Source of the DNA: a virus
Lineage: Duplodnaviria > Caudoviricetes
Direction: 5' to 3' (one strand)
Virus record (IMG/VR): IMGVR_UViG_3300025640_001000
DNA: 64,000 bases
In this document: positions 7,939 to 42,897 of the stretch, one piece after another
Position numbering within the stretch: position 1 is the first letter of the stretch
Layout: the number at the start of each line of letters is the position of its first letter
Position numbers and translations under genes: made by a program
The notes under the pieces: generated by a model
Told to the model about the DNA's origin: nothing
Seen by the model: only the letters and a program-made list of their open reading frames with translations
Database searches by the model: none

Positions 7939-10509
7939 ATGGGAAAGTTAGATAAAGTATATAATTTGGTATGGTACGGAGATTGTGATGATCCAGATTG
8001 TCAGCCCGTAGATTTGTCTTTGTATAAAGACGACCTTGAGTTTGTATTTCAGATTTCTGATGTTAACTCGGGGTGGAAACATTGGTCATCAGCAACAGAT
8101 GCAATCAATCTCGGAGATTTTGCGGATTTGATATGTGGTGTGCCTTATATCATAAAGTTGACATCAGATGATAAAGTAAAACCAAATAAAGTAGTTGAAA
8201 TTCCTGGAGTTACTGTTGGTAGATTTGCAGATGATCCAACTGATGCTACTAGTAAACGAATAAGTGACAATTGTGTACCTGCAAAGTTTTGTACATTTGT
8301 GGTTGATAATGTTTTAACAAGCACATTTGATTTAACCATTTATATGTCTACGATAGATTCATATAGAACCAATAATTATATTCGTGGTTTTGAATTGTTT
8401 TTTGATAATGTTAAACTGAAACCCACAGGTACAATTTCGCATACTTTTCAAGAACGAGTTGCAACCGCAGTTAAAAATGATGACAATGAAGAAGAAGAAC
8501 TTTTTCGTGAACTTATCAAACGAACAAGTTCATTGGTTTCGTTTGATGAAGAAGGTGATACAACTTACAACAAATGGGGTTTTTCAGATTTAAGAAAGTT
8601 TAGTACAGGCATTTCGTTGAGCAACGAATTTCAGTCATCGTATAAATTTACCATTCCGTTTGATTCTATTGACGGTGAATTGAAAGTTAATAGTGCTAAC
8701 ATTTACGATACAACGGTTGGTCGTTACAAATTTGATTATGTATTGTGTGATGGTTACAAACCACCCACAAATCCAACCCCAACTCCAACTCAAACTCCAA
8801 CTCCAACAAGTGAGTGCATAAAACCAGACGATGAATATTGTGAAGAATTGGTATTTCATTTGCAAAGTAAAAATGAAACAGATGGTTCTGATGTGGTGAT
8901 TGATGCAAGTCTTAAAAATCATCCACTTGAATTTCCAAATGGAAGAATCAAGCATTCATCTGCCAGAAGAAAATTTGGGGAAAGCAGTTTTGATTTCACA
9001 GGAAACGAAGTTATCAAACTTCCTCAGTCAGAAGATTGGAGATTTCTTCAAGGACAATTTACGATTGATGCGTGGGTTTATGTAGATTCATTTGATGCTT
9101 CTAGTAACTTTACACGTGACAAAGCAATTTTTGCAAGTTTGGCAACTCAACAAATTATGTTTGGAATTGACAATAAAAGTGGAAAACTGATTATGTGGGA
9201 CGGACTTTTGCAAAAAAGTTCAGACGAAGCAGTTGTTGCACGAAAGTGGACTCATGTTGGTGTAACTCGTGACGGATCAATTCTTAGAATGTATATTGAT
9301 GCCAAGAAAGTATTTGAAGACAGAGAATATTCATCAAATTTTTACGAATCAAATAGTTTCAGTATAGGTGGAGCAATAGACTTTGATTCAGGAGATTCAA
9401 ATTACACAAGATTGTTTAATGGTTACATTAACGATCTTCGTGTTGTTAAAGGTGTCGCATTGTATACATCAGATAGATTTTGTGAATACGAAGACTTCCA
9501 TGAAGATTGTGAACATCCTCCGTCACCAACTCCAACTAAAACTGATGTTCCACCAGAATGTAATCCAGAACATTATACTTGCGAAACGAAAATTGAACCA
9601 AGCAATTTGTTTGATAACTTCACTAATTTCTATGGATTAACAGGAGTAAATTCTTCAGGAACGTATGCCGTAACCAACGAAGGATCAATTAAAAGTAATC
9701 TTGACAACACATTGACAATAGAAACGGTTGAACCTACGAGTGGTGATGCAAACATGGTTGCAGTATTTTCCGATGGAAATTATCAAATGACATCATTCTT
9801 TAAGCATTTTTGTTTGAGCATATTTGATTTGTCTTATTCTTCAACACAAGAAGTAACAAGTCATTTGGCACTTTATCAAACTGATACAATTTACACAATG
9901 GAAATTGCAACCGGTAACTCGTTTAATGATCCAACTATTCAACGAGGACCAGTGGTTGCTGAGTCGTTTGTTCGTAGAGTAGGAATGGGACCAGAGTATC
10001 CAATTTTATCAACAGGAAATCGTTTTAGAGTCGGATTGGCATTTTCAAGAACAGGAGTTCCTGTTGCATCTGAAATCGTTTTACAAAATGGTTTTGATAT
10101 TTGTTTGAGCAGAAATATGCTTTTTGTTCCTGATGACGAAACAACACCAACTCCAACACCTACGGTAACACCAGAAGAACCATTGAATTGTTGTATGGGA
10201 TTTGATTATCAGAATATTGAGGTTACTGCTGAAATGGCAGCTAGCACAAAGGCAGATGGACCTCCTGGAATTTCAATAAATGGATTTGAAGAAGGGGGTA
10301 TTGTGTGTATGAATGAACTTACCGAAACGGTGCAGACATTATCTTGTCCAGTTTCAACGGCCGACTTCACACTGTCCGGTATGATAACACTAGGTCAGAC
10401 ATCACCTGACAATAAACTAAGATATACATCTGTCGCAGGTGATTGTTATGAAGCAGATTTGGAACATAATCCAAGTGCTGGTTTTGTTTTATTAAATCCA
10501 ATAACATAA
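7939..10509 (+). CDS. modular protein: WYG module, cohesin-like domain, PT, LamG, beta domain, PT, CC module
   Basis: LVWYGDC..LICGVPYIIKL; YIRGFELFFDNVKL; FTIDAWVY..WTHVGVTRDG..FNGYINDLRVVKG; NCCMGFD..GFEEGGIVC. Confidence 0.8.
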   Translation: MGKLDKVYNLVWYGDCDDPDCQPVDLSLYKDDLEFVFQISDVNSGWKHWSSATDAINLGDFADLICGVPYIIKLTSDDKVKPNKVVEIPGVTVGRFADDPTDATSKRISDNCVPAKFCTFVVDNVLTSTFDLTIYMSTIDSYRTNNYIRGFELFFDNVKLKPTGTISHTFQERVATAVKNDDNEEEELFRELIKRTSSLVSFDEEGDTTYNKWGFSDLRKFSTGISLSNEFQSSYKFTIPFDSIDGELKVNSANIYDTTVGRYKFDYVLCDGYKPPTNPTPTPTQTPTPTSECIKPDDEYCEELVFHLQSKNETDGSDVVIDASLKNHPLEFPNGRIKHSSARRKFGESSFDFTGNEVIKLPQSEDWRFLQGQFTIDAWVYVDSFDASSNFTRDKAIFASLATQQIMFGIDNKSGKLIMWDGLLQKSSDEAVVARKWTHVGVTRDGSILRMYIDAKKVFEDREYSSNFYESNSFSIGGAIDFDSGDSNYTRLFNGYINDLRVVKGVALYTSDRFCEYEDFHEDCEHPPSPTPTKTDVPPECNPEHYTCETKIEPSNLFDNFTNFYGLTGVNSSGTYAVTNEGSIKSNLDNTLTIETVEPTSGDANMVAVFSDGNYQMTSFFKHFCLSIFDLSYSSTQEVTSHLALYQTDTIYTMEIATGNSFNDPTIQRGPVVAESFVRRVGMGPEYPILSTGNRFRVGLAFSRTGVPVASEIVLQNGFDICLSRNMLFVPDDETTPTPTPTVTPEEPLNCCMGFDYQNIEVTAEMAASTKADGPPGISINGFEEGGIVCMNELTETVQTLSCPVSTADFTLSGMITLGQTSPDNKLRYTSVAGDCYEADLEHNPSAGFVLLNPIT

Positions 10510-10520
10510 AATGAAACAAA

Positions 10521-10886
10521 ATGGCAAATTTAGAACAAACAGAAGATTCTTTAGCATATTACCAAGGATGGTATGGAACATTATCTGAAAATGGTATAGA
10601 CGGATGTGAACCTTTAAAACTAGTGCTTGGTGACGGTCCTTATACAAAGGCTTATACTGAAATTTTGAATGTTATTGAAATTCGAGATGACAACAAAGCA
10701 CCAATAAGTTACAACGGAATTCTTCCAGATGTGTTGCTTGGAAATGCAACAATAAAAGAATTAAAATGTGGGCATTCTTATTTAATCGTATTAAAAAAAG
10801 GAACAGGTAGTGTAGATATTCCCGAATTCACGTTTGCAACCGCAGGAACCTCAAGTTATGAGTACAAACTTAGATCAACTATCTGA
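10521..10886 (+). CDS. stand-alone WYG module protein (121 aa)
   Basis: [33 protein letters not shown]; a single domain, near-duplicate of the next gene's N-terminus. Confidence 0.75.
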
Positions 10887-11171
10887 TTCTCTTGCATATT
10901 ATCAGGGGTGGTATGGAACTTGTCCTGAGAGTGGTTCTGATGTATGTGAACCTTTAAAACTAGTGCTTGGTGACGGTCCTTATACAAAGGCTTATACTGA
11001 AATTTTGAATGTTATTGAAATTCGAGATGACAACAAAGCACCAATAAGTTACAACGGAATTCTTCCAGATGTGTTGCTTGGAAATGCAACAATAAAAGAA
11101 TTAAAATGTGGGCATTCTTATTTAATCGTATTAAAAAAAGGAACAGGTAGTGTAGATATTCCCGAATTCAC
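10604..11171 (+). repeat. 228-bp perfect direct repeat (10604-10831 = 10944-11171)
   Basis: Base-by-base identity from ATGTGAACCTTTAAAAC to CCCGAATTCAC at an offset of 340 bp; flanks are diverged. Confidence 0.95.
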
Positions 11172-12147: not shown

Positions 12148-12150
12148 GTC

Positions 12151-15589: not shown

Positions 15590-18500
15590 GTGAATTTTTG
15601 TTGCCATGATGATTATACCAAGGCAGGAGTATTTTCGGCCGATCATAAAAATATTTACATTGCTTGGCAAGCTTGGCTAGGTACGTTTGAAACACAATCG
15701 GATTTCACAACATTAACAGATTTCCAATCATATTTTGATACACTTGTATCTCAGGGTCAAGTAAATGCTTTAATTAATCCAATTGCAATTTTACCTGACC
15801 ATCCAAGTATAGGAGTAGATTGTGCTGATTTTACGGAACAAGGCTCAATTGCCGCTGACGACAAAAATATATTCATAGCATTTCAGGCATGGTTAGGTAC
15901 GTTTGAGCAAGGTGAGGCACTTGGCACATTATCTGATTTTCAATCTTATTTTGATAATCTCGTATCTCAGGGTCAGGTAAATGCCTTGGTGAATCCTGTT
16001 AAACACCTTCCATCTCTTGAATCAGATGACCAGGTAATTACCGATGGTGGACTTGTAGACAAAAATTGTGGAGAACCACAACCGTGGGATACCGCAGGAA
16101 ACGCAGATCAAGATGGTCTTATTGTCATCACAACAAATTTGTCGGAAACCCTTACCACAAATACCGATGCAGGTGATACAACAACAGGTTCAACTATAGT
16201 AGAATGTGAATATGTTCCGTTTACATCTACAGGTGCTGATCAAGAATATATTGTACCAGAAAATGTAACTTCTATATTTGCTCATGTATGGGGAGCAGGT
16301 GGATCATCTGGTAGATACACCAACACCGCAGGTTCAGGTGGTTATGCAGAAGGTCAGTTTGCAGTAACACCTGGTGAGAAATTAATATTTGGAGTAGGTG
16401 AAACCACAAAAGGAACAACCAATGATACCAAACGAATACCAGGTTATAGTATCGGAGGATCAGCAGGTTACGGAGGAAATGGAGCATACGACCCACCACC
16501 TGGATCATTTCCTGCTACATTCTTTCCGTCATCAGATGGATTATCGGGTGCAGGTGCTGGAGGAGGAATGAGTGGAATTTTTCGTGAATCAATTACACCA
16601 GAAAATGCTTTGATTATAGCAGGTGGAGGAGGTGGAGCTGCGAATGTAACTTATCCTGGTGTTGGAGGTGGAGCAGGTGGTGGAAAAAACGGAGATGCCG
16701 GTTCTGTTCTTCCAGGTGATAAAAAAGGAGGTGCAGGAGCAACACAATTGTCTGGTGGTGACGGTCATTTTCTTGGAAGTGACGGTGAAACAAATTCATG
16801 GGCAAGTGGTGGTGGAGGAGGAGCAGGTTGGTTTGGTGGCACAGGAGGTCAAACAACAAGTGCAACATGGACGAACGAATCTTTACTTGAATCTGCACAA
16901 GGAACTGGTGGAGGTGGATCGGGACATCTAGATAATGTAATTGTATCAGGATCATTTTCAACGGGTACAACTGGGAGAAAAGGTGAAACTACAATAATCA
17001 AATCTCCAAAACCAAGCATGATAAATTGTGCAGATGATACGGTTGTAACTTGTACACCTGATTTTATATGCATTGAAGAACCTGGAAATGGTTCTGATAT
17101 TCCACCGAATTTAGCAGGTATGGCGGGAACATATAAATTAAGAAAACCGGGTACAGACTCAGTTTTAACGGGTAATTCATATCCAGATAAGTGGATTGGT
17201 TACAACAATACGTGGATCAGAACGACCACCTATTTAGGTAATAAAAAACCAAGTTCAAGTTATGGCATTTTGACACGACAGAATGACGCATGGGGAGGTC
17301 AATATTGGATATATTATGCAAGTGTGGTTGGATATTTTGATATGCATGGTCACGCAATAAATCCGGCGCAATATACTGTCCCCGTGGAGACCCGCACCAC
17401 CCACTTCAATATTCCAAAAATATTTGATTCGGAAAACACTGAAACAACGTGTATTACGAAAGCAACATCTATATTGTTTGGAAATAATCCATTCCGCGTG
17501 GGTTATAACAAAAAAATACCCATCATTGTTACTCCAACTGAATGTCCACCTGTTGAATGTACATTTGAAATTAGCAACATTACGGATACAGAACCAACAG
17601 GAACAGAAAACACAATCGGAACTTTTGATTTAACGATAAATTTAAGTAGTTTGTATGATTATGGAACCAGTGGTTATGTTCGTGCAATGGAAGCAGAATT
17701 TAGTGGAATAGAATTAGCAAAGAATAATGCCATAGTAGCAACAACCTTTGATTTATATAAAAACGATTCTTCAAAAACAAATGAAGAACAAGAAATGTGG
17801 ACGGAACTTAGCAATAAAACTCAAACTATTTTATCAAACATTGGTGAAATTACTGAATCACGAAACAAAATAATGTTTGCGGATTTATTGCAGAATCAAG
17901 GATTTAGATTAGCAGCTTATGTAAACACAACTATTACATTTACAATTTCATATACTCAAAAAACCACCGACTATTTTTATGTAAGTTCTGCGGAATTTTA
18001 TGATTCGTCAACGGATATAAATCAGTTTCATGGAATAATATGTACACCCAACACACCAACTCCGTCACCGACAATTACTCCATCACCTACAGTTTCACCA
18101 ACGGTAACCGCATCACCAACGGTAACTCCGTCTCCAACTATTTGTTTTGAAGATGCGTTTTGTATTGTAGAATCTGCTGATTTATACGGACTTCATGCAA
18201 ATTACGAATTAGTTGAAGAAGAAAGTGATGAAAATGGTGCGACTTACATAGCAGTAAATGCAGATATAGCATTTGATGCTGATATTCATGTGCCTATAAA
18301 AATTAAACAAATAGGTGGTTACTCTTCGAATGTTTGGCAGATTCAAACAGATGATCCTACTAAAGAACCATGGCCAATCAAAAATTTGTTTAAACCTATG
18401 TTAAATCAAGACTTGCATTTCTTAGATAAAAACAGAAATCATGTGCATTGTATGAGTCAAGTTAGTTACATTGATTTTGCTGATGCAGGTATTACATCAC

Positions 18501-21500
18501 ACGGATCAACTAATAATCTAATAAGAACTGGTGTACGAGAATGGGACGCAGAATCAACTACCAGTGCATTTACTCGTTATATAATTACACAAAACTTTGA
18601 ATTGTATGTGGCAGGTACCAGTAACATAGGTTCGGGTCATTATTATAATTCATCATATTCATACTCAGATACCAATCCGTATTACTTAAGAGGTTGTAAT
18701 CCACTTGGAATTGATTATACTGAAATTTCTGAACGACGTTCTGTATTTTTACCAGATGGTTATTGGCATGAAGGTGTAGTTTACAGAAGTTTTGAACATG
18801 ATTTTGATTTTTATCAAAAACTTCCGATAGAAAATGTTCAAAAAGTAAGAACCAGTGATCATAACTTTGGTTTGTTAATTCAAACACAGACAGGTGAAGT
18901 TTATGGTACAGGTCACTTCAAAAAGAGTTTAACTGAAAATATTTCACGTATTCAGGAACTAGATGGAATTGATATTGATGAATTGGTTACGGTGGACACT
19001 GTATATTGTGAAAATGATGCAGTTAACTCAGACGAACCAATTTTAAACTTTGCATTTGCGTATATTGATAAAGCAGATGAGTCAAAGTTAGTTTATTATG
19101 TACCTACATTTACTGAACTTTCATGGAGTGAATTTTTGCAGACAGGTGCTTTTACAGACATTCAACTGAATTATCCTTATGTAACTGGTTATACAAAAAT
19201 CACAACTTCTAATTTAACTAATGTTAAAAGTATTATTCCGTTTAAAGATACTGGATTTTTCTGTGTACAGACCAACGATGATAAATTATGGACACACGGT
19301 GTGGTAAAAGAAATGCAGATTCCAAGTGGTTCTGAAGTAGTTAGTTATCTAGGAGTGGGTGGTGGCACCCGTGACTACAATGTTTCATTCATTGATTATA
19401 CGAACGCATTTGATGATCAAAACCAAGTGTTTACAGAAGTTCAAAATATACCAACTATATTATATACCACAACAGACGAACACGGATTAAGAAGTCCTGT
19501 GTTGTCGTATATGATTCAACTATCCGACAAAAATGTGGATGTTTCACTAAGTGAGTTCTTGCCATATTATTTGAGTGATACCACCAATTTGAAATTGATC
19601 AAATCGGGAGTGGATTATGATGAAGTTACTGGACACGAAACGACAAAAATGTTTAGAGTATTATATGCTTCACAAAATTCAAACTGGGAATTAGATACAC
19701 ATCATATGCGAAGTCAGTTTGCAGTTGCATACAACGAAGACAAACTAACATTTGGTTATTTGACAATAACTGACAAAATAAACTTTAATCATAATCTTGA
19801 TTCTACATTGTTGGAGAATTTATTCACAGATGCCAATGACGCATATAATGTAAGCAATCCAACTGAATTTTACAATAAAATAAAAAAGATTACATTTGCA
19901 ACTTATCCATTTTCAAATGGAGAAAAAATAACAAGACAATCAGATGGTGAACTTGTGGTTCCTGTGACTCGTACACACAAGCATATTGTGTCGGTATTGT
20001 TTAATGAAAATCAATACAACAAACGATTGGCAGTAGATGCGTTGATATCATATCATTGGAGTTTTCTTTACTTAGGTAGTTCATATTCATCAGCTGAATT
20101 GGAATTACAACAAGAGCAACACAATTATGAAATTTCAATTTATAATTTTAGTCAAGATTACTTTTATGCAGAAGGAACAGGAAGTTTAGTTGATGATATA
20201 TCAACATTTGGTTATCAATTAAACACTTCAATTGAAAATAACTATCGATATTATGAAGCAGACGGATTCAATGGTGATCACATTCATGATCGTGGTGATA
20301 TAGTTAAATTTGGTCTTGGAACTGAGATAAGTGTCGTGGATGATTGTACATTCGAACCACCCACACCAACTCCTTCAAGAACCACTTCATATACTCCAAC
20401 ACCGTCAATAACTCCGTCACCAACTATCACTTGTGGAGAACCGGATTACACTAATGTAGAAAATACTTTTGTATGCGTTAATGGGATGACATTACAATTT
20501 GTTGGATTTGATAAATTAGAATCACAAGGAGGAAGACCAATTTATGAAACACCAAGTGGTAATGCTAGAATTTATTGGGGTGGTTACCAAGGATGGATTT
20601 TAATAGTATGTAATAATCCTGACGAACCACTTCGGGACGATTGCTACAGTGAATGGACTCACTCTATTCCAAATGCGTGTGATTTTTATCCGTGGGAAGC
20701 AGATTGGTCCGTAACTCAATATGATACACGCATTCAGCATTTAGTGGATGATAGAGGGGGTCAAGGTGATAATGATACAAGATATTTTGATTATTGGTAC
20801 GCAGGAAGTCCAGTTGGTGGAGAAAGTGACTGGTACGGGTCAGTTGATGTCAAAAATTGTACACCATGTGATGCTTGTTTAATAGAACCAAATCAATATA
20901 GTTTGACTGAATTAGGATTACCCGCAGTAAATTCTTTAAGTGCAGAATGGTATCGTGATTTTGGTGGATCATTGTGTTACGGATTGATACATTACACACA
21001 AAATGAAAACTTTCAAATATTCAAAACATACATTGCTTACATTGAAAATGATGCATCACCAATCGGAACAATTACAATTACAGGTGAGTTCATCGGTTCT
21101 GATTTAATAACTTATCAGTCACCTTTAAATGAATGTTATATTGCAACACCTACCATTGAAGGATCACAAAATGTTTATAGATTTATCAAAGAAGAAGCAA
21201 CACCGACACCATCCGACACAAGTTCACCTACACATACACCGTCTCCTACATTTACACCGTCTCCGTCACCTACCATAACACCAAGTCCATCACCGAGTCC
21301 GTCTGTAACGCACACACCAAGTCCAACTGAAACACCTGAATCCGAGTTATCTTGTTGCACAGAAGGTTTGATTGCAAACATAATTTCTAAAAACACAGAA
21401 ATAGAATTTGGTTCACCGACAATAACTGCAACTGCGTTTACTTTCAATGCGGAAGTTTGTGTAGATGTGCCTGATGGAGGATTGCCATATAGTGTAAAAC

Positions 21501-21643
21501 TTAAACTGAATAATGCTATCGTTGGAGTGCTAACCACAACTGGAGTTATGACAGGAACAATTTATGTAAAAAACACAGACACAGAAGTTTGTTACACAGG
21601 AACAATTGTAAATGATGAATGTTCACTAACTATTTTACAATAA
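15590..21643 (+). CDS. 2017-aa modular protein: duplicated dockerin-like N-terminus, Gly-rich (ALK/LTK-type) domain, cohesin-like domain, RCC1-like region, PT linkers, 2x CC module
   Basis: GTG start. CHDDYTKAGVFSADHKNIYIAWQAWLG / CADFTEQGSIAADDKNIFIAFQAWLG; FTSTGADQEYIVP..VWGAGG..GGYAEG..VTPGE; GYVRAMEAEFSGIEL; IQTQTGEVYGTG; SCCTEG..CYTGTIVNDECSL. Confidence 0.75.
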   Translation: MNFCCHDDYTKAGVFSADHKNIYIAWQAWLGTFETQSDFTTLTDFQSYFDTLVSQGQVNALINPIAILPDHPSIGVDCADFTEQGSIAADDKNIFIAFQAWLGTFEQGEALGTLSDFQSYFDNLVSQGQVNALVNPVKHLPSLESDDQVITDGGLVDKNCGEPQPWDTAGNADQDGLIVITTNLSETLTTNTDAGDTTTGSTIVECEYVPFTSTGADQEYIVPENVTSIFAHVWGAGGSSGRYTNTAGSGGYAEGQFAVTPGEKLIFGVGETTKGTTNDTKRIPGYSIGGSAGYGGNGAYDPPPGSFPATFFPSSDGLSGAGAGGGMSGIFRESITPENALIIAGGGGGAANVTYPGVGGGAGGGKNGDAGSVLPGDKKGGAGATQLSGGDGHFLGSDGETNSWASGGGGGAGWFGGTGGQTTSATWTNESLLESAQGTGGGGSGHLDNVIVSGSFSTGTTGRKGETTIIKSPKPSMINCADDTVVTCTPDFICIEEPGNGSDIPPNLAGMAGTYKLRKPGTDSVLTGNSYPDKWIGYNNTWIRTTTYLGNKKPSSSYGILTRQNDAWGGQYWIYYASVVGYFDMHGHAINPAQYTVPVETRTTHFNIPKIFDSENTETTCITKATSILFGNNPFRVGYNKKIPIIVTPTECPPVECTFEISNITDTEPTGTENTIGTFDLTINLSSLYDYGTSGYVRAMEAEFSGIELAKNNAIVATTFDLYKNDSSKTNEEQEMWTELSNKTQTILSNIGEITESRNKIMFADLLQNQGFRLAAYVNTTITFTISYTQKTTDYFYVSSAEFYDSSTDINQFHGIICTPNTPTPSPTITPSPTVSPTVTASPTVTPSPTICFEDAFCIVESADLYGLHANYELVEEESDENGATYIAVNADIAFDADIHVPIKIKQIGGYSSNVWQIQTDDPTKEPWPIKNLFKPMLNQDLHFLDKNRNHVHCMSQVSYIDFADAGITSHGSTNNLIRTGVREWDAESTTSAFTRYIITQNFELYVAGTSNIGSGHYYNSSYSYSDTNPYYLRGCNPLGIDYTEISERRSVFLPDGYWHEGVVYRSFEHDFDFYQKLPIENVQKVRTSDHNFGLLIQTQTGEVYGTGHFKKSLTENISRIQELDGIDIDELVTVDTVYCENDAVNSDEPILNFAFAYIDKADESKLVYYVPTFTELSWSEFLQTGAFTDIQLNYPYVTGYTKITTSNLTNVKSIIPFKDTGFFCVQTNDDKLWTHGVVKEMQIPSGSEVVSYLGVGGGTRDYNVSFIDYTNAFDDQNQVFTEVQNIPTILYTTTDEHGLRSPVLSYMIQLSDKNVDVSLSEFLPYYLSDTTNLKLIKSGVDYDEVTGHETTKMFRVLYASQNSNWELDTHHMRSQFAVAYNEDKLTFGYLTITDKINFNHNLDSTLLENLFTDANDAYNVSNPTEFYNKIKKITFATYPFSNGEKITRQSDGELVVPVTRTHKHIVSVLFNENQYNKRLAVDALISYHWSFLYLGSSYSSAELELQQEQHNYEISIYNFSQDYFYAEGTGSLVDDISTFGYQLNTSIENNYRYYEADGFNGDHIHDRGDIVKFGLGTEISVVDDCTFEPPTPTPSRTTSYTPTPSITPSPTITCGEPDYTNVENTFVCVNGMTLQFVGFDKLESQGGRPIYETPSGNARIYWGGYQGWILIVCNNPDEPLRDDCYSEWTHSIPNACDFYPWEADWSVTQYDTRIQHLVDDRGGQGDNDTRYFDYWYAGSPVGGESDWYGSVDVKNCTPCDACLIEPNQYSLTELGLPAVNSLSAEWYRDFGGSLCYGLIHYTQNENFQIFKTYIAYIENDASPIGTITITGEFIGSDLITYQSPLNECYIATPTIEGSQNVYRFIKEEATPTPSDTSSPTHTPSPTFTPSPSPTITPSPSPSPSVTHTPSPTETPESELSCCTEGLIANIISKNTEIEFGSPTITATAFTFNAEVCVDVPDGGLPYSVKLKLNNAIVGVLTTTGVMTGTIYVKNTDTEVCYTGTIVNDECSLTILQ

Positions 21644-31183: not shown

Positions 31184-32176
31184 ATGAGTTATTGCGAATG
31201 CCATGATGATTATGTAAATTCAGGAACATTTGATTTATCTAATGTTCGGGTTTATCGTGCGTTTCAAGTTTTTCATGAAGGTGGAAAGCAACCTATGCCT
31301 GGCCAAGACTCATCGACACCTATCATGGACAGATTCACGACATTCTATGCGGATGGCCAAGCAAGTGGTGCTTATCCTGCAATTGGTGCAGCTGTAGTAA
31401 CACTACCAGCAGACCCACCGGAAGAAGGAATTTGTGCAAATTATGACGAAGATGAAGCAGGAGTCTTATCATTGTCCGATTATCGTATTTTTCGTGCATT
31501 TCAAGTGTTCCATGAAGGTGGACGACAACCAATGCCAGGTCAAGACTCATCAACATCCATTATGGATAGATTTCTTGCATTTTACGCGGACGGCCAGGCA
31601 AGTGGTGCATATCCTGCAATCGGAGCAGACGTTAAGCACTTACCTATTCTTGAAGCAGATACTCAAGTAATTACCGATGAAGGTCTTGTTGACAAATGTG
31701 ATACGGGTGCAGTTTGTACTTGCAGTGCAGTTGTAGAAGATACTGTATTAAAAGTTGATTTTGATGCAAGTGAGTTGACAGGTGGAAACGGAGACATAAA
31801 AGGTGTGGAAATCGTATTTGATAATGTTGTATTCGGAGAAAAAACAGGATTATCAGGAGGTAACGCAATCATAAACGACAATTTTAAAGATACTAACGAT
31901 GCAGCTACTTTAGACTTTTATTATGATTATAGCATCCGTTCAACCTCAGTAAACGATATAGAAACAGAACCAAACAAAACAAAATCGGTAATTGGTTTCA
32001 TTGATACAACACAAAACGGAACCGGAGCAACCAAATCTGAATTAAGTTCTTTTCAGTTTTCAGTTCAATCTTCGAGTTTCACACAAACAGGAGACAATCC
32101 TATTATTGCTGATGTAAGAGTTTATGATTCTTCTGCGGAAGTCGTGCAGTATGATATAACAAGGTGTGGAGAATAA
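31184..32176 (+). CDS. small adaptor-like protein: duplicated dockerin-like module plus one cohesin-like domain
   Basis: CHDDYVNSGTFDLSNVRVYRAFQVF / CANYDEDEAGVLSLSDYRIFRAFQVF, with about 50 near-identical residues per repeat. The tail VKHLPILEADTQVITDEGLVDKC is shared with 15590. Cohesin-like GDIKGVEIVFDNVVF..VRVYDS. Confidence 0.7.
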   Translation: MSYCECHDDYVNSGTFDLSNVRVYRAFQVFHEGGKQPMPGQDSSTPIMDRFTTFYADGQASGAYPAIGAAVVTLPADPPEEGICANYDEDEAGVLSLSDYRIFRAFQVFHEGGRQPMPGQDSSTSIMDRFLAFYADGQASGAYPAIGADVKHLPILEADTQVITDEGLVDKCDTGAVCTCSAVVEDTVLKVDFDASELTGGNGDIKGVEIVFDNVVFGEKTGLSGGNAIINDNFKDTNDAATLDFYYDYSIRSTSVNDIETEPNKTKSVIGFIDTTQNGTGATKSELSSFQFSVQSSSFTQTGDNPIIADVRVYDSSAEVVQYDITRCGE

Positions 32177-32188
32177 CATAGGATTGTT

Positions 32189-35100
32189 ATGGTACGATAC
32201 GGAGACATTGTAAATCCCAATGGAATACCTGATGCAAATGATGTACAAGCATTATTGAATTATATTAAACAAGGAACTTTACCTTCCGAGGGAAGCATCA
32301 ATTTTATTTTAAGTAACATCACGCAAAAAGAATCATATGTAGGTCCTGGTTTCTTTGAAGTATTATATTTAACAAAAAATCGCAACACCACAGACTATAC
32401 AGGTCCTGGTTATGAACTTGGTTTAGCATCTGGTAAAGGAAAAAGCATAGATGCAACCGAAAACAAGTTCATTGCATCATTTCCTTATGCGAAAGTCCAA
32501 AATTTATTTACAGACGATGAATATGCAGGTATCGCAAAAATTTATTCAAAAAATTTAGGAACAGGAAAATACGAAGAAAGTGATTTGCTTTTTCCAGATA
32601 CAATTACAAATCCTGATCCTGAAACGGGTGATGCACAACAAACAGTTGGAAATCATTTTCACTTTGGAGAAAATTCAGTTGCGATTGATGGTAACTTTGC
32701 CGCTGCATCTGCATTAGATGGTTCAAAACCTTATGTTTTTGTTTACGAAGATGATGGTACAGGATTTACACGCATTCATACTTTATCAAGTTTCAGTTCA
32801 AGTTCATCAGCTGCTCCAACGGTAGAAATTTCCGGTAATCGTTTGTTTGTTGGAGATTATACCAACAATAAAGTTTATGTTTATAGTATAATTTTACTGA
32901 AATCCTCGGACGAAGCTAGCAAAACAATAAGTATAGAAACTTCAACAGATGTGTCTTTGTTTGGTCAAACACTTGTATGTAAAGATGAAACTAATTTATT
33001 TATAGGTAATCCAACGGAACTGGTTGACTATTCATCACCGGTCGATTTTAAAGCAACAACGGGTGTTGTGTATCACTATGCATTTGAAACTAATGCATGG
33101 AATTTAAAAAACACATTGCTTCCGGTGTTTGCTTCCGAACCAAATGCAATAGACAATGCAGGAATGTATGGACCATCCGGAGGTGTGACCGAATATGATC
33201 TTGATTCAAAATTCGGATCGTATTTGGATGTCAAGGAGAAGGACGGTTCAACAATTTATGTAGCAGTAGGTTCACCCAATTGGTATCAAGATTCAAATGC
33301 AGAACAACTTGATAATCGTGAAGGTGCTATTTTTGTATACGAAGTTACTACATCAAGTGCGACTTTAATAAAATCAATAACCAAATCGTCTGTGGCAAGT
33401 GGTTCTGTTCTGGTCAACTATGAATTGGGTACAGGTGTATCATTGGGTGAAAATTACCATTTATATTCAATTTACAACAAAGATGAAGGATCGATATTAA
33501 AATTCAATTCATCGGTAGATGACGGAACTCGTAACTGGGCAACTGGTGCTGAATTGATTAATTTGCAAAACGCAGGACTTACGGGTGGTGATCTTGCCAT
33601 AGATTCCACCGACTTGGTATACGGAAATGCAATAGCAACAAATTCATTGCGAGTAGTTTATACAGGTGCTTCCAACGATGTTGGTACATTCTCAAAATTG
33701 AATTTAAGAAAACTTAATTTGTCTGCTTCATTTCTTAAAAAAAATAATGAGTTGAAATCATTTTCAATTAACAATGTTCCTGCGTGTTGTGATGGATTTG
33801 AAAATAGCATAAGCACACATGGAGATGGAGATGAACGACCAAATGTTGCGGGAATAAGTGTTCAGTTTTTTGAAGATGGTGGTAGTTTGTGCTTTCACAA
33901 TTTAAACATTGATGGTTTAAGTAATCCATATGGTGTTCGTATTGACATGGGCAACAAAGTTGTTTACGGAAAAATAAAAGCAACCGGTAAATTCCAAAAC
34001 AACGAAGTGCTTTATATTTCACCTACACAAAAGAAATATCGTGGACAACTTACAAGCAATTCAGGATTTGAAAACATTTTAGCATTTGAAGGAAATTGCA
34101 CTGTAGAACCAACTCCAACTCCAACTCCAACAAATGATGGAGTGATTGATGACGCAACACCACAAACTCCAACACCAACTTCTGAGTTGATTGAAACACC
34201 AACTCCCACTCCAATTGTTTACGAAACCACTAAAAATCTGTTGGAAATTCATAACATTGATATGAATAAAACGGGATTGTATAATCAACGTCAAAAAATT
34301 GCTTCTATAAACGGAGATTTGGAAACGGCAATCAACGCAGATAAAAATGAATATATTCAATTCAATTCAGATACAGGTCAATACGACTTTGTATATGATG
34401 CTAATATCAACTTGGCAAAATATCCGTCTGTGTCAGTCGCAGGAGGTTCTGGTGGATTTGCATATCAACTTATAATTGCTTTAAAACAACCCATCACAAT
34501 TCCAAAAAATTCAAAAGTAAATGCACACTTTGTTCCTATTAATGTGTCGTTTGGAACTGCCGGTGGTGCAAAAAATACTCAAACAAACAAATCACCAATG
34601 TCAGGATCATCTACATTGGAACTAGAATCACTGAGTGCAACTGCTCACACTTGGCCTGGATGTGTATGTTGTCCATTTTATTCGTTTGCATTAGAAGAAA
34701 ATCTCGGAAGTTCAGTTGTTCAAAAAGATTATATAAGCATAAAATATTTAGCAATAGGAGGATTTGTCGGAGGATGCAACGGAAAACCAAATTACTTTGC
34801 TAGATTGCAATCAATTGCAATTACTAGTCCTGACATCAAACCACCCACTCCAACACCCACTATAATAGAAACTTGTACAGAATTGGAACATTGTGACAAT
34901 GTTTCTTTGAATATTCAAAGTACAAACAAAACCGTATTTGAACTTGTTCAAGATGCATCTTTGAATGATTTTAAATTTCGTCATATGAACGGAGTTCGTT
35001 TCAATGAAAATGATGCGTTGTATGGTGATACCTCAATGTACTTTGATGGTGAAGATGATTATTTGTTGTCAGATGATATGGGAAATGCAGAACCACTTCA

Positions 35101-38100
35101 GTTTGAACAAGATGACTTTACAATTGAAACTTGGATTAAGTTAGAACCTGCTCCGACTCCCACACCAACTCCCACACCAACACCAACTCCTACCGCTACA
35201 CCGACTTTAACTCCAACTCCGACTTTAACTCCAACTCCGACTTTAACTCCAACTGCGACCGTTACTCCAACTGCGACTTTAACTCCAACTCCAACCGTTA
35301 CTCCGACTGCAACGGTAACTTCAACTGATACTACCCCACCGACTCCGACACCCACACCAACAGAAACTCCATCTCCAACAGAAACTGTAACACCAACAGA
35401 AACTCCAACTGCAACCAGAACAACTTCATATACACCAACTCCAACAGGTACTCCATCACCAACCGGTACTCCAACTGCAACAGGTACTCCAACCGCAACA
35501 CCTTCTGAAACTCCAACACCAACTTGGAATCCATATAATTGCCCAATACAAATTGGAGATACCTTAGATGGCACAGACAACAGAGAACGTTTTGGAGAGA
35601 TTGCAACTATATCTTCTTCTGGAGACCGAGTGGCAATAACTTCTGTGTGGAAGAAAGTTGGTGAAAATCCATTCATGGGTGAAGTTAAGGTATATGAATC
35701 AACTGCTCCTGGTGAAACTCAATCTTGGATGCAACTAGGAGAAACTATAACAGGTGACAATTCAACTTCGGAAAGCAGTTCATTTGGTTCTTCACACGAA
35801 TTTGATAAAACTGGTGAGATACTTGCAATTGGTCACGAAAACTCTTCAACCAGAGAAAGTCCAAGTCAATTAATCAGTAACCACGGAAAAGTTAGAATAT
35901 ATAAATACAAAACGGTTACTTCCACGGAATGGAATTTATCAAATGTGTTGGATACCAATACTTCTGATAAACCTATAATTGTTAATCATGGCAAACCATA
36001 TAGTGCGAGTAAAAAATATTGGGTACAACTTGGTGGTGATTTGGGAGGAGTTTCGTCTAGTCAGGCAGGAGACGGATTTGGTAAGTCAGTTTCATTGAGT
36101 GACGATGGCAATATGCTTGTGGTTGGTTCACCTGGTGATTCGGGTACTGGAGGAAAAAAAGGAACTGGTCGTATCAATGTATTTCGTTTTCAAAACAACG
36201 AATGGCAAGACGCAGGTGATATACCAGGTAACAAAGATATACCTGATACCGTATCAACTGTTGGTAACTTTTTCGGTAATGCAGTTAAACTGAGTGGTGA
36301 TGCGTCAACATTGATAGTGGGCGCACCCCAAGGAACTCAATCAGGACCAGGTTTCATCCGTATTTTTGCTCATTCGCAAAATAATTTAAATGTAGATATA
36401 TGGACTAAAATAGGTTCTTTCGCAGGCACCTCAGATGGTCAGGGATATGGTACAGATATTTCGTGCAACTCAGATGCAACAGTTGTCGTAGTGGGTTCAC
36501 CTTACTTCAACGATTCTACCGGTAGAGTATACATTTATACAAAATCAGGTAATTCATATACAAATTCCAAAATTATTAACGGAATGCACAGTAGTTCTTT
36601 GTTTGGCAGATCAGTTGATTTAAATGAAGATGGAACGATACTTGTAGTGGGTTCACCTAATATGAACTCACGAGATTCAATTAAAACTGGTGCATCTTTG
36701 ACATATGAAAATGATGGAGTAACGTGGAATTTAATTGCAGTAACCGAGGGTGATTCCGATGATGATCTCTCCGGTACATCGGTTGGGATTAGTTCAACTG
36801 GAAAAACAATTGTGGTTGGTTCGTCCGAAAACACCACCACCTCACCAACTGGTGATCTAAACACAGGATATGCAAATGTATACGATTTGAATTGGTGTAC
36901 TGATTGGAATAACGATGGAAAATTTGGTGCAACTTCATTAAAAGCAATGTCTCGTACAACCAAGTTTGATGTGACTTCGTTTTCAACTTCAGATACATTG
37001 GATGTATTAAGTTCCGACAACATTGATTTGGAGTTATCGGGATTATACAACAAACAAAGAAAAATAGCATCATTTACAGATGGAACAATAAACAATGCAG
37101 TTTCAGCAGAACAAAACGAATTTTTGCGATACAACAATCAAACAGGACATTATGATTTTAATTACTCTGCTGATGTTTCTCTTTCACAATTTCCATATGT
37201 ATCTGAACCAGAAGGTGAAGGTGGATATCATTATCAATTGATTATTGCACTTAAAAATCCGATTCGCATTCCAAAGGGTGCTAAAATAAATGCAAACATC
37301 GTACCCACCATCACAGACTGGGCAGGATCAGGACAAGAGTTGTATAAAAATATGGAAACCAATGTGGTTCCTGTTAAAGCATCATCTCATGTTTCGTTGG
37401 AAACGATGCCATACAATTCGTTATCATGGACAGGATGTGTATGTTGTCCGTTTACTGCATATAAATTTGAACACAACCTCGGAAGTTCAGTTGTTCAAGG
37501 TGATTATGAAGAAGTTAGATTTTTAATGATTGATCAGGTTCTTAATGGATGCAATGCAAAACCTTCATATGAAATGAGATTGCAATCTTTGTCTATAAGA
37601 AATCCAAATCCAATTCAAACAACCAATCAAGGATGTTGTGATGAATTTACAAATCGCATAGATACATACGGAGATGGTGCAGATCGTCCCTCAGTTGAAG
37701 GTGTAAGTGTGCAATGGTTTGAATTGGGTGGTAGTTTATGCTTTCACGATGTAATAATTGATGGTTTAAGTAATCCATACGGAGTTAAAATTAATGTTGA
37801 TGGAAATACCGTTTATGGAAAAATAAAAGCAACCGGAAAATTCAAAAATAATGAAGTAGTTTATGTATCACCAAACGGATCATATTATCGTGGTAAATTA
37901 GAATCATCTCAAGGATTCAGTAATTCATTGATTTATGTGGGTGAGTGCAAATCAACCGAATTGCTTGATCGTGGATTGTCGTATCCGATTTTTAATATCG
38001 GAGGAGCAGCTGCATTAACATATGAATCGGAAAGTCGTGAACTTAGATTTCTTGAAAATTATTCGTTGGACACAACTCATAAAGTTGATGTAGGAATTGA

Positions 38101-41100
38101 ACAAAACACATGGACACATCTTATGGTGTCTCGTCATAATAATTTGATGTACTTTTATGTTAATGGAAAGCAAATTGGTGAACCATTGCAAAACGATATT
38201 TATTATGGTTATCCAACAAAACTCGAAATTGGCAGAGGATTAAACTACGAAAACAAATTAACTTATTTCAGAGGTTACATTGATTCACTTAAAATTGTTA
38301 AACGTCATGTAAAATATGGATGTGAATTTGAACCTGGATATTTTGGAAATTGTGAAAGTGATGTACTTCCAACTCCAACTCCAACTCCAACTCCCACACC
38401 AACTCCCACTCCAACTCCGACACCAACTCCGACTCCTGTTCCTGAAAAGACATTAAGAATTTATAGTAACTATAAAGATACTGCAAATATAGTGATCGTC
38501 AACGGAAAGCAAACACAAGTTGATGACTTTTATGAATTTTCCTTGTTACCTGGATCTAAAATTGAATTTATTCCAACTACAAATCATTCATACATTTTTA
38601 AACAATTGCATGGTGATACAAGTTGGTTGATTAAAAATAAAGGTGTTATGCCCAATTATGATGTAGATATTCGTTTTGAATATGCAACATATGATCCCAA
38701 AGATTACATGACTAATTGTGAAGATAAATGTCCATGTGATGAACCAGAATTTGAAAAACCGATAAATGTTGTACCAAATCCAAGGCAATCATTGATCTTC
38801 CACGAACATTTGGATCAAAAGAAAGTATTTGAACGAGATGAAGAATTTGAAGCATCATTACCAGGAACACCTGGTATCACGTGTGAGTATGAAGTGGGTA
38901 TGCGAGTTAGTGGACCGATTATCCGAAATTCAAAAACCGATAGTGCATATATTTGGAGAGACTTGATATTAATAAGAAACAACAAATATGTTTTTAATTT
39001 TGAAAATAACGAATCTATTATCAAATTGTACGACAAACATGGTGTAGAACTAACTGAATTACAGGGAGTGTATTCTTCGGAAGAGTGGGTATATCCTCTT
39101 ATAGTTATGCCAAACGACAGAACTCCTGATTTCATAGAATACAGATTATTTGAAAAAGATATGGGTCACGGTGATATTATGGTTAAAAACTTAAACCACA
39201 TTGCTGGTTTGGTTACTGCGTACAATTATGTATTTGGTTCAAAAACAGAGATTGCAATTGAAAATGGAGAACTACTAACTAGTTCACGTAAAAATGGTGT
39301 ATACTACGTAGGAATAACTGAGTATGTAGATTTAAACGAAGTATCTATAACTTCATCAAGTGGTCAGGAACCCAATTTACAAGAAACCAATAGTTTAAAT
39401 TACAAGAATGTTTCTGGATATCTGGATACAAACTTGATAACTACAATGTTCTCAGAGTTGCTTGTGGAAGTGGGCAATTACAGAAAAACTCATATAGAGT
39501 TGTCAAGATTCTTGGGACTTCGTCCTGGTAAGAACTTATTAAAATTAGATTATATGAGTACATTTATGTGGACAGACCATTTAAATTTACATGAGTTGAC
39601 CAAAATTTTACTTTTAAATTTATTGTTTGAATATGCTCACAAATTTAATCAGTTTGATAAACTAATGGAAATTCTAATAAATCGTATTACAAAATCAAAT
39701 CAATCATTTAAATACGAAGACGATTATTATATCAAAGACTTGCTTACCTCCGCAGAATTGGATGCAAGATTCGCAGAAGTTTTCTCAGTTGTGTATGTAA
39801 AGATTATCGGTAACATACATTCTGAAGACGGTCTTGGTAATTTATATTCATCTATAAAACTCATTAAAACTGAGATTCTAAACAAAGAAAATTATTCTGT
39901 TTATATTTTCCATGATAAATTCCGTGAAAACATGAACTCACTTTCTTACTTAGGAACATCTCAGTTGATGATGCCTGAGTATGTTTTATTAAGTTCCGAG
40001 AGATGTACAAATTCTCAACTTGGTAATTACGTGATAAAGAAATTTGATGACTTGCTTACGCATCCGATGTTTAATAAAAACGAACCATCTGATAAGATGC
40101 TGAAACACATGACACATCAAACATTAAGAATATCAGCATTCAAACAATCTTTTTGTTATACTATACTACCTGTTCCATATAATTTGTATGGTATTTACGA
40201 TGACATAGAATCATATCAAATTCTTGACAATTACGATGATGCAGATGATTGTTGTGAGATTGTCAGTATCAATGAAACTTACATGGATAATGTAAAACCA
40301 CAAATTCAAGAAAATGAAGTGGGTATCTTCAAATTTATCGAAGCAGGTACTTCGTACAAAATGCTACATTTCCCAATCACCACTTTCAATTTACCTGTGG
40401 AAAAAATAAATCATAATCGTTTTCGTGTGTATATCGATGCGAAAATTGATTTAACGCAAGTTTCACATTCAGTTCCTGGATACATAACAACTTCAAGAGG
40501 AACTGCAAGTAATCTTGGATTCAAATCTATTGATGTAGGATACAATTCAAATCATCATAAACGTGAAGTGCATAACACTCAACTTGCAAGAGAAACCGTA
40601 TCAATTCTTACCACTTGGATGATGCAAGATGGATATTTGAATATTGTAACAGATACATCAATTGAATTACAAATCGGTCAATTTATTACAATTCGCAACT
40701 CAACCAACAACTCAGTTCTCAACGGAACACATCGTATAAGTGAGGTATCAAACAATTCGTTTGTAATAAACTTTAGAGTTCCTGTGAATATGACTATGGC
40801 TGATATGCAAAATACTACTGCCGAATTTGATATGCTTACATTCACAAAAATTTATTGTAATGTTGAGGGTCTTGTAGTTGGAGATGAATTGGTGTTTGAT
40901 TATGCAAGTGGCAACGGAAAAACATTTCCAATTGTTGGTGTATCACAAGATGATGCTGGGGTTTATGCTTTGATTGATGGAGTTCTTGACCACGAACCTA
41001 GTTTCGTTATCAAAAGTGGTTATGACATAGAACCAGAAAATCATGTAATTTTTACCCATGAAGGAAGAAGCACTTATTACGAAGTAACCAACACAGACAT

Positions 41101-41203
41101 TCTCAAAGAATCATTGTGGTTGAGTCATTTACCAGATTCAACGGATGAAGGTAGATTTGGTAATACTGTTTCGTTCATTGAGATATTTATTAACGACATT
41201 TAA
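32189..41203 (+). CDS. 3004-aa giant modular protein: N-terminal dockerin-like loop, 2 FG-GAP-like beta-propellers, 2 CC modules, 2 CxCCP modules, split LamG, long PT linkers, C-terminal structural region
   Basis: [23 protein letters not shown]; seven FG-x-(S/A)V-x-(L/I)S-x-DG-x-x-(L/V)VVG(S/A)P-type blades; GCVCCPF x2; FTIETWIK ... [26 protein letters not shown]. Confidence 0.8.
35147..35524 (+). repeat. about 126-aa Pro/Thr mucin-like linker containing tandem 18-bp units (CCGACTTTAACTCCAACT)
   Basis: [14 protein letters not shown] x3..PTATVT..TPT in the translation; tandem DNA units are visible at about 35200-35300. Confidence 0.9.
38369..38443 (+). repeat. (PT)n linker
   Basis: [25 protein letters not shown]. 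Confidence 0.9.
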
Positions 41204-41223
41204 TTACGAGGAAAATCTTCAAG

Positions 41224-42897
41224 ATGCAAACCGTAACAACTGATTTTATAGAATTATCTCAACTTAAACAATTCTTACAAAAACATAAAAGTATAAATTT
41301 GGATGATTTGGAAAAACACAGATTCGGTCAATCTGTGTTGAACAACAAGTTTTTTCACGACTTTGACATGGACGGCAAAATAACTTTTTCTGACTATAAC
41401 ATTGCGTGGAATTGGATATTACAAGGAAAACCAACCGACATTTTTGAATTTGCGAAAAATAAAAGTGCATCACCAAGAGCATATAAATTACCTTATCAGT
41501 TTATTCAAGACAATGATGATAATATTCTATTGGATAACCGAATACCTGAATATGATTCTAATGATGGATCAGTTGTAGGAGAAGCAGTAATTTCAATGAG
41601 TGGTGAATCAACTTCAGCTGAATTTGAAGTCACAAAAAGTAGCACAAGTGAACCTTCATCTGATTTTAATAATGATGGTGAAGTAGATGATCTTGATTTA
41701 CAAATTCTTGAAGGTTACATTTTAATGCAACCAAGTACATTAGAAGAATACAATGCTAACCGAGGAAATTTTCCATTAGCAGTAAATTTACCAAGTGTTC
41801 TGACTGCGAAATTTTCGTGTGATCCTGTATACTATTATGGTGATATTGATATGTCTGGTCATGCGTTAGTAAATGATGCGGACATAGAATATTATATTGA
41901 TATATTAAATGGAACAGAACCGTTACCTGGACAAAAAACACTTGCTTTTCTATTAAGTAATACAATTCCATATGAAGCAGTAAGAACCTGTGAATTAAAC
42001 GGAAGCATTGAAAATTCAGAGATATGTGTTAAATTACAAGAAGGTGTATTTGCAAAACAAAATACACAAAGTTTTACAAGCAGTTTGTATTTTACTTTAA
42101 ATTATGATACAACACAATCATCATCAACTAATCGTGATGTATGGAGTTATTCTGATTCAGATGTAAATATTGAAATTGGTGGAAAAATCAACAATTCATG
42201 GTATATCATTGTAAAAGATTTGACACTTGACGGGAATGTCATGGATGCGTTTTATGGAACGATGCTTTATTTGTCAAAAGAAGACCCAAGTGCAACTTAT
42301 CCTTGGTGTGCAGATTGGGATTGGGATGAAGGCTACGATGACAATACTATTCCAGATGCACATAATTTCAACGGAAATTCAAGATACGAGTCAGTTTTAG
42401 AAAAACTCGATGAACCAACTTTTCAAGGAATAAGAAAATTAGTAAACGAAGTAAATCAAGGAACTTGTTCAGATGTTTACGATATGAGTACATTAAATTT
42501 TCTAAATCAAGAATCTGAAAATTATGAAGTACAAACTATTGGAGAATTTAGAAAGCAAAATGCTACTTCAAGTGGTGTGCGAAGTGATTATTTAGGTCCG
42601 GGATTTCGTCATACTTTAATGGCGTGCAATATTCGTGACGATATAGTTGCAAAAGAACTTCATAGTACCATGATGTTTAAAGTAGACTACCGAGATTATC
42701 TTATTATGAAAGAGTGGTTACGATTGGGCAATCCTGATACAAAAAATCTTCAGTCTGAAAATAGTTTAATTGATTGGTTTAATGTAAATAGCAGAGATGG
42801 TACACCAATTGCCTGTGCGCTTCCATATCAAATTTATGATTGGATAGGAACAGGATTTGCATTTGCAAATGCTTATTCCGGTGAAGAAAATCTATAA
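41224..42897 (+). CDS. multi-dockerin-like (EF-hand-type Ca-loop) protein
   Basis: DFDMDGKITFSDY, DFNNDGEVDDLDL and GDIDMSGHALVNDAD, plus degenerate KVDYRDY. Each is followed by a predicted helix, and three end in a P-x-A-x-x-LP tail. Confidence 0.7.
   Translation: MQTVTTDFIELSQLKQFLQKHKSINLDDLEKHRFGQSVLNNKFFHDFDMDGKITFSDYNIAWNWILQGKPTDIFEFAKNKSASPRAYKLPYQFIQDNDDNILLDNRIPEYDSNDGSVVGEAVISMSGESTSAEFEVTKSSTSEPSSDFNNDGEVDDLDLQILEGYILMQPSTLEEYNANRGNFPLAVNLPSVLTAKFSCDPVYYYGDIDMSGHALVNDADIEYYIDILNGTEPLPGQKTLAFLLSNTIPYEAVRTCELNGSIENSEICVKLQEGVFAKQNTQSFTSSLYFTLNYDTTQSSSTNRDVWSYSDSDVNIEIGGKINNSWYIIVKDLTLDGNVMDAFYGTMLYLSKEDPSATYPWCADWDWDEGYDDNTIPDAHNFNGNSRYESVLEKLDEPTFQGIRKLVNEVNQGTCSDVYDMSTLNFLNQESENYEVQTIGEFRKQNATSSGVRSDYLGPGFRHTLMACNIRDDIVAKELHSTMMFKVDYRDYLIMKEWLRLGNPDTKNLQSENSLIDWFNVNSRDGTPIACALPYQIYDWIGTGFAFANAYSGEENL

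Follow-up and report, generated by a model that had tools for sequence, protein, structure and literature searches.

The 64,000-nucleotide stretch of viral DNA that we analysed (the window; IMG/VR virus record IMGVR_UViG_3300025640_001000) contains 14 large genes between positions 3 and 42897, designated here by their start positions, which most probably encode an array of modular surface proteins, rich in Cys, that an uncultured marine megaphage would use as fibres or adhesins; their modules are joined by Pro-Thr (PT) linkers. We establish the modules of these proteins and their homology, a dockerin-type sequence signal in gene 41224, a shuffling of heads and cargo, and a conserved gene order. 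A prediction made earlier from the sequence alone (the original prediction) had read the region as a cellulosome-like cohesin-dockerin scaffold. Cohesin-dockerin coupling is a bacterial way to build extracellular enzyme machines, and our literature search found no paper describing a virus that uses it to assemble its own particle. We tentatively suggest, as a reading that could well be wrong, that the surface proteins described here include a pairing of this kind, between a Cys-bracketed beta domain and Ca-loop modules. Coordinates of all features are collected in Table 1.

Ca-loop modules in gene 41224 and in the head of 32189

The full Ca loop of dockerins, with its acidic position 12 (strict pattern D-x-[DN]-x-[DNS]-G-x-hydrophobic-x3-D, then a helix), is found at three places in the 14,195 residues scanned, all of them in 41224 (loop starts at residues 46, 147 and 207; nucleotides 41359, 41662 and 41842). 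The bare DxDxDG motif is seen six times versus 2.3 +/- 1.6 in shuffled sequences, which is little above chance; the dockerin case rests on the full loop with its helix and on conservation. The match of 41224 to Pfam Dockerin_1 (PF00404) reaches 33.4 bits, where 22.9 is the cut-off (E 5e-8), but it extends only from position 2 to position 23 of the 57 in the profile. When a profile of the 41224 family (alignment A5) is compared with PDB sequences, the five best matches are true cellulosomal dockerins with E values from 1.7e-5 to 5.3e-5 (1.7e-5 to 3.6e-5 for 4fl4_A, 1daq, 2mte and 2vn5_B); only true dockerins score below 1e-4, and EF-hand proteins appear at about 0.7-0.9. Both halves of the PDB dockerins align to one single segment of the 41224 family, 140-173. 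Among 14 homologues, with identities down to about 50%, every loop residue of modules 1 and 2 is unchanged, and some of these proteins have one or two further copies of module 1 (in relatives up to three). In one relative (L004, 9306-10924) the orthologue is split into two genes, whose products are a protein of 194 residues with one module 1 and a protein of 307 residues with the rest.

A common unit of about 60 residues, made up of loop, helix, short helix and a terminal LP, accounts for the four modules of 41224 (the last lacks the loop) and for residues 1-52 of 32189, which all align with one another. Within this unit the N-terminus of 32189 (GDIVNPNG...NDVQALLNY) aligns with module 3. Pfam Dockerin_1 does not match 32189, 15590 or 31184, and the head of 32189 is called dockerin-type by virtue of its homology to the 41224 modules. 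The units of 41224 themselves are, as judged from their sequences, of dockerin type and not canonical two-repeat dockerins. For their three-dimensional shape there is a hint only: when the modelled residues 3-69 of 41224 were compared with 48,161 structure representatives, the dockerins 2vn5_B and 2ccl_B came out best (Z 4.0, with 48-52 residues aligned of 56 and 62) and 4fl4_A and 3ul4_B close behind (dockerins overall Z 3.6-4.0), with unrelated helices tied. In the model, module 1 and the helix before it together match a complete dockerin in size and shape.

The original prediction had reported dockerin motifs in four genes. They are borne out in 41224, by Pfam and by conservation, and in the head of 32189, by homology; the supposed duplicated versions at the start of 15590 and 31184 are indeed two repeats of about 75 residues each, but these lack a canonical Ca loop. 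It had also listed DWNNDGK near 36900, which we rejected as a dockerin repeat at 36902: it has neither the acidic position 12 nor the helix, and we assign it to the propeller type because it lies directly after FG-GAP blades with a loop of the same type (DLNEDG at 36617). Apart from these motifs, a block of about 350 residues occurs twice in 32189 (about residues 530-881 and 1602-1937) and again in gene 4953 (4953-7937), the identity reaching 63% over 124 residues. The similarity of the copies indicates a recent exchange of modules between adhesin genes.

The Cys-bracketed beta domain

Three mutually similar Cys-bracketed beta domains had been proposed; they measure about 160 residues and are homologous (BLASTP E 3e-12 and 2e-4); a census of the window with a hidden Markov model (HMM) built from 28 sequences (A4) finds exactly three. 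The family is tiny, with 30 matches among 1.84 billion representatives in an exhaustive profile search. Entries with 7-11 matched stretches in that search, which we considered as possible tandem arrays of the domain, are unrelated T/S-rich repeat proteins.

In the AlphaFold model of 31184 (mean predicted local distance difference test score, pLDDT, 70.3) the beta domain has about ten strands arranged as a sandwich. Its best Foldseek match in the PDB is the cohesin 1aoh (E 5e-3, probability 0.95, template modelling (TM) score 0.43), with many cohesins below it. An aligner independent of Foldseek (VIA), applied to the 48,161 representatives, of which cohesins form a very small share, returned cohesins in nine of the 11 top rows, each aligned over nearly the whole cohesin; the best match is 6kgc_A (Z 6.8, root-mean-square deviation 3.6, 108 residues aligned, chain residues 4-131 of 144). 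A second structure look gave cohesins in all ten top rows and in 29 of 50 entries. The ESM Atlas points in the same direction: the leading clusters of a shape search with the Atlas's own model carry Pfam Cohesin in 15-75% of their members, a feature search has as its top match (score 0.86) a cluster in which 31% of the members carry Cohesin, and a shape search with our AlphaFold model has in its first row a Uroviricota cluster with Cohesin in 18% of its members. The BFVD viral fold library gave no clear match. By eye, the conserved strand of the type I-x-G-x-E-x-x-F-D-N-V recalls the G-x-x-x-F...YD strand of cohesins.

Because these methods agree, though each score is weak, we regard a cohesin-like fold of the beta domain as probable, as far as predicted structures can tell; that the domain belongs to the cohesin superfamily we would put at an even chance. 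Two kinds of results count against a cohesin assignment. Pfam Cohesin (PF00963) does not match the three window domains or the 28 family members at E values up to 10, and at the same limit the HMM of the beta family finds no PDB sequence. The structural scores all lie in the twilight zone (Z at most 6.8, i.e., below 8; Foldseek E at best 5e-3; TM about 0.4-0.5), and pilin, Ig-like and carbohydrate-binding module (CBM; CBM2 and CBM3) sandwiches follow within one Z unit of the cohesins. The original prediction had called the cohesin assignment its weakest link. At fold level it fared better than expected, with cohesins leading every structure search, but the scores are low and profile matches in Pfam and the PDB are nil. 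In Pfam, one of the comparisons that it proposed, Dockerin_1 exceeds its cut-off in 41224 but Cohesin remains unmatched; with AlphaFold and Foldseek, the beta model lies nearest to a cohesin but the model of 41224 is poor and retrieves EF-hand proteins only.

Heads, cargo and a possible docking arrangement

The N-termini of the large proteins are interchangeable heads, one per protein, of three types: a GWYG head, a double helical repeat of units of about 75 residues (15590 and 31184), and the dockerin (F-hand)-type Ca-loop module of 32189. The GWYG head is found on seven window genes (7939, 10521, 10834, 12151, 21683, 25542 and 27629), and the truncated first open reading frame (ORF; 3..911) starts with VWFGD, which resembles it. 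One of the seven, the ORF of 121 residues at 10521-10886, consists of a GWYG-type head only; it overlaps the next gene (10834-12147), to whose head it is 87% identical, and may be either a stand-alone head or a remnant of recombination or frameshift.

In the double-repeat heads, a Cys and an H-D-D-Y-T-like stretch open each unit of about 75 residues, and LP closes it. The AlphaFold model of the 31184 head shows each repeat as loop-helix-loop-helix, with pLDDT mostly 73-92. A profile of the Ca modules cross-matches one double-repeat unit in a relative (L003) at E 0.0056. Language-model features in the Atlas give scores of 0.77-0.78 for the double repeat, which is noise level, and Dockerin_1 clusters are the only named families among the matches; the double-repeat profile has no meaningful match among PDB sequences. 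It is possible, from these comparisons, that the double repeats are related to the Ca modules, and then distantly at most.

The same heads are attached to unrelated cargo and recombine among relatives, as in phage fibres and adhesins. The double-repeat head is followed by the beta domain alone, by a Gly-rich giant, by an unnamed part of 218 residues or, in L004, by a Big_13 protein. In 7939 and 31184 the beta domain immediately follows the head, and in 15590 it lies deeper in the protein; related architectures include the GWYG head plus beta domain in about ten proteins of about 290 residues, one or two repeats plus beta domain, and the GWYG head plus beta domain plus more domains. Nowhere in the window, in the loci of relatives or in these architectures does a protein contain more than one beta domain, and a scaffoldin-like protein with several sockets in one chain was not found in the window or among the relatives. 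The cellulosome-like scaffold of the original prediction is not upheld in this respect. The lectin and adhesin cargo that it described has Pfam support for LamG, FG-GAP and the Gly-rich domain (ALK_LTK_GRD) but none in the window proteins for CBM5/12 and discoidin, and the PT linkers are present as 16 runs spread over eight genes.

The gene order is conserved as well. In two relatives (L002 and L003, 33-35% identity) a protein with double repeat and beta domain is directly followed by a gene with a 32189-type Ca-loop head and the GPGFFEVL segment, and orthologues of 41224 always lie at the border between the adhesin cluster and a cluster of sugar-modification genes. L003 (1-20975) comes from a long-read assembly in which the orthologous giant genes are broken into many short ORFs, which are probably assembly frameshifts and not real gene decay.

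If the beta domain and the Ca-loop modules pair, the proteins could be arranged in two tiers. GWYG or double-repeat heads would fix their own proteins to the particle, and the beta domain behind the head would form a cohesin-like socket for Ca-loop modules. The first candidate pair would be 31184, a protein of 330 residues, holding the giant adhesin 32189 encoded by the neighbouring gene; 41224, which is made almost entirely of Ca modules, may act as a multivalent connector. In its most complete form, this reading is that of a highly diverged cohesin-dockerin system of the phage's own that builds a Ca-dependent, self-assembling adhesin coat: 31184-like sockets hold giant lectin-type adhesins, 41224 cross-links the sockets, and phage sulfotransferases and glycosyltransferases decorate the PT linkers, an 'adhesosome' on cellulosome logic without secretion. 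We consider this complete form unlikely.

Several observations weigh against the pairing. The AlphaFold model of 41224 residues 1-255 is poor (mean pLDDT 52) and usable only for 144-190. The dockerin-type units of 41224 are single repeats, 60-100 residues apart, and not the tandem pair of repeats of about 22 residues in one domain of about 60-70 residues. In an hhalign comparison of the double repeats, which have no canonical Ca loop, with the Ca modules, loop and helix are in register (D, T, G, hydrophobic, D), but with a probability of just 37%. In about ten proteins of about 290 residues nothing but the beta domain is carried as cargo, an arrangement that suits a ligand-binding module at the end of the protein equally well. 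Apart from these observations, a complex prediction with the beta domain of 31184 (residues 160-330), 41224 135-255 and two Ca ions scored 0.02 against a mark of 0.32, the fold of the 41224 part itself being uncertain, and speaks neither for nor against the pairing.

An alternative explanation, which we hold roughly level with the pairing and just as open to doubt, is that there is no internal plug and socket. The beta domain would be a carbohydrate-binding or spacer sandwich from the shape class shared by CBM, Ig-like and cohesin domains, the Ca modules would stabilise or stiffen the proteins, and each protein would be fixed by its own head, as in ordinary phage fibres. The structural matches allow this, with CBM2, CBM3, pilin and Ig-like sandwiches tied within one unit of a Z of at most 6.8 and no Cohesin signal in the sequence; the many head-plus-beta proteins resemble minimal adhesins, the other cargo (LamG, FG-GAP) is lectin-like, and Foldseek with the poor 41224 model retrieves only EF-hand proteins, at E about 1. 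However, cohesins take nine of the 11 top rows although they are rare among the representatives, the beta domain of 7939-type proteins adjoins the head and not the distal end usual for binding modules, and dockerin-type repeats are encoded in neighbouring genes whose order is conserved.

Two further explanations retain the Ca modules as binding elements and are both improbable. The dockerin-type modules could be aimed outward, bind cohesin-like sockets on the host surface and serve adsorption instead of virion assembly. Their repeats are of genuine dockerin type, and non-cellulosomal cohesins are common in marine bacteria; however, the modules are N-terminal or fill a protein without any other recognisable part, host-touching fibre tips are normally C-terminal, and no host cohesin can be named. 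Alternatively, the helical modules could pair with each other, in which case the single head of 32189 would form hetero-pairs in trans with modules of 41224 (perhaps also the double repeats), without the beta domain. An F-hand unit on its own, as with an isolated EF-hand, folds only with a partner, and this idea would fit the single repeats, the four modules of 41224 with up to three extra copies of module 1 in relatives, and the poor folding of the isolated 41224 region. However, the modelled module 1 with its preceding helix already reaches the size and shape of a whole dockerin.

Probable phage origin, sugar-modification genes and comparison with known systems

The genes of the window are on the plus strand only and tightly packed, with stop and start codons often overlapping and with GTG and TTG starts; the G+C content is 0.29-0.38. 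The exact 41224 protein is present on 40 contigs, the longest of 492,783 bp. Of the 69 index blocks that list this protein, 15 have a longest contig of 0.2-1 Mb and none has one above 1 Mb. Relatives of 31184 occur on contigs of up to 594 kb from marine assemblies (Tara and others), and the look-alike clusters in the ESM Atlas carry the label Viruses in 100% of cases and are mostly Uroviricota. Because of the packed genes on one strand, the contigs of up to 594 kb with none above 1 Mb and the Uroviricota look-alikes, we are highly confident that the source is a marine phage of megaphage size, which agrees with the jumbo phage first proposed. Marine megaphages have been described (PMC9723777); a relationship of the window phage to that phage was not found. 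Scans of viral contigs with query P0001 and alignment A2 gave no relatives, and megablast of the downstream sugar-modification cluster gave no match among phages.

We infer that the adhesins are located on the virion, with indirect support from LamG parts that match PHROG virion and baseplate families. None of the 14 large proteins has a signal-peptide-like, hydrophobic N-terminal or membrane segment, as had been noticed at the outset, yet they are Cys-rich and contain extracellular-type modules, which fits release by lysis. That the contig is cellular or from a giant eukaryotic virus, and the proteins exported to a cell surface, is very improbable: the 64-kb window contains no terminase, capsid, tail or other hallmark phage gene, which speaks against a phage, three window proteins have no tblastn match in 50,697 phage records, and several glycosyltransferase families are eukaryote-like, but the overlapping one-strand genes with their GTG and TTG starts, the missing signal peptides, the sizes of the contigs that carry 41224 and relatives of 31184, the viral labels of the Atlas clusters and the PHROG matches all stand against it.

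Downstream of 41224, the sugar-modification cluster includes at least seven sulfotransferase-like genes together with GT8, GT25, GT64, Fringe/galactosyltransferase-like, PLOD-type, GT77-like, NodZ-like, epimerase/dehydratase and SGNH-like genes. Since it lies directly after the genes for PT-linked adhesins, its position suggests that the phage makes sulfated O-glycans on the PT linkers. Such a modification, if real, would be out of the ordinary among phages and would recall the glycosylation of giant-virus fibrils. Two other kinds of genes are found inside the cluster. One encodes a protein of 705 residues with a GHKL-type ATPase domain (HATPase_c_3; 49497-51614), which relatives also carry inside the cluster, one of them in duplicate; the others are two DUF1796 genes (putative papain-like peptidases; 45268-46044 and 52298-52831), located among the sulfotransferases and kept in relatives.

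Table 1. Positions of genes, modules and motifs in the window
Feature	Position	Strand	Description	Evidence or remark
7939 protein	7939..10509	+	856 residues: GWYG-type head, beta domain, PT linker, LamG, further Cys-rich modules	
Beta domain, copy 1	8266..8751	+	Predicted cohesin-like; directly behind the GWYG head of 7939	A4 profile E 6.5e-42
15590 protein	15590..21643	+	2017 residues: double helical repeat head, Gly-rich domain (ALK_LTK_GRD), beta domain, PT linkers, more modules	
15590 head	15590..16018	+	Two repeats of about 70 residues, each predicted loop-helix-loop-helix with degenerate F-hand-like loop	Profile (A6) matches 15590-15799 and 15818-16018
Beta domain, copy 2	17540..18046	+	Predicted cohesin-like; in 15590	A4 profile E 7.9e-38
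31184 protein	31184..32176	+	Minimal protein, 330 residues: double repeat head and beta domain	Conserved in relatives, a giant gene always next downstream
31184 head	31184..31651	+	Two repeats of about 75 residues	Model helices 18-32, 47-60, 97-111, 126-139
Beta domain, copy 3	31688..32170	+	Predicted cohesin-like; in 31184, the modelled copy	AlphaFold model, Foldseek, structure search
32189 protein	32189..41203	+	Giant adhesin, 3004 residues (largest product): Ca-loop head, CC-type modules, LamG, long PT linkers, FG-GAP propeller, C-terminal region	
32189 head	32189..32338	+	N-terminal head, then GPGFFEVL segment	Homologous to 41224 module 3
DWNNDGK loop	36902..36922	+	FG-GAP propeller-type Ca loop	
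41224 protein	41224..42897	+	557 residues: four modules of about 60 residues and an insert of about 200 residues	Adjoins the boundary between adhesin and sugar-modification clusters; conserved
41224 module 1	41329..41508	+	Canonical Ca loop (D46-x-D-x-D-G-x-I-x-F-x-D57) and helix	
41224 module 2	41635..41811	+	Dockerin_1-scoring repeat (DFNNDGEVDDLDLQILEGYIL)	Pfam E 5e-8; PDB dockerin profile matches
41224 module 3	41812..41982	+	Ca loop partly degenerate, and helix	
41224 module 4	42667..42843	+	Same module type without Ca loop	
Sugar-modification cluster	42956..63851	+	About 25 genes (about 21 kb)	Sulfotransferases, glycosyltransferases, epimerase, SGNH-like enzyme

If the beta domains and Ca modules do pair, this would explain how phages with genomes of about half a megabase display such a variety of giant adhesins, and recombination could bring in new binding modules while the particle itself stays unchanged; for protein engineering, it would offer a very divergent, orthogonal plug-and-socket pair. 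Even without the pairing, the beta domain, the head of two repeats and the Ca module with its extension each represent a new domain family in an abundant lineage of ocean phages, where they are linked to a large phage-encoded cluster for sulfation and glycosylation.

Among known systems, the modules of 41224 are most like type I dockerins (PF00404; 1daq, 2mte, 2vn5_B, 4fl4_A), with which they share a Ca loop of 12 residues (D-x-D/N-x-D-G-x-I/V-x3-D) leading into an amphipathic helix. However, the repeats in 41224 are single and each has an extension of about 30 residues ending in LP, whereas dockerins have two repeats within about 60 residues; the modules here are N-terminal or make up the whole protein, whereas a dockerin is a C-terminal tag on an enzyme; and the proteins here have no secretion signal and their partner is only a candidate. 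The beta domain resembles the cohesins of scaffoldins (PF00963; 6kgc_A, 5nrk_A, 1ohz_A, 1aoh_A) and non-cellulosomal cohesins (2xdh, 2vo8) in being a predicted beta sandwich of about 150 residues for which they are the top structural matches from end to end. It differs from them in the absence of sequence-profile similarity, in being Cys-bracketed, in occurring as one copy per protein, and in a distribution of 30 representatives confined to this phage lineage, and its Z is just 6.8. In contrast to a cellulosome, the components lack signal peptides, as would follow if they were parts of virions that are set free by lysis. Phage fibres and tailspikes have N-terminal attachment domains, and phages of the CBA120, G7C and RaK2 type form branched receptor-binding complexes in which spike docks on spike. 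The proteins described here are like them in that a conserved N-terminal head is joined to unrelated cargo, heads and cargo recombine, and several such genes stand in a row; they differ in their new head types (GWYG, double helical repeat, Ca-loop module), one of which is of dockerin sequence type, and in a possible docking platform with a cohesin-like fold.

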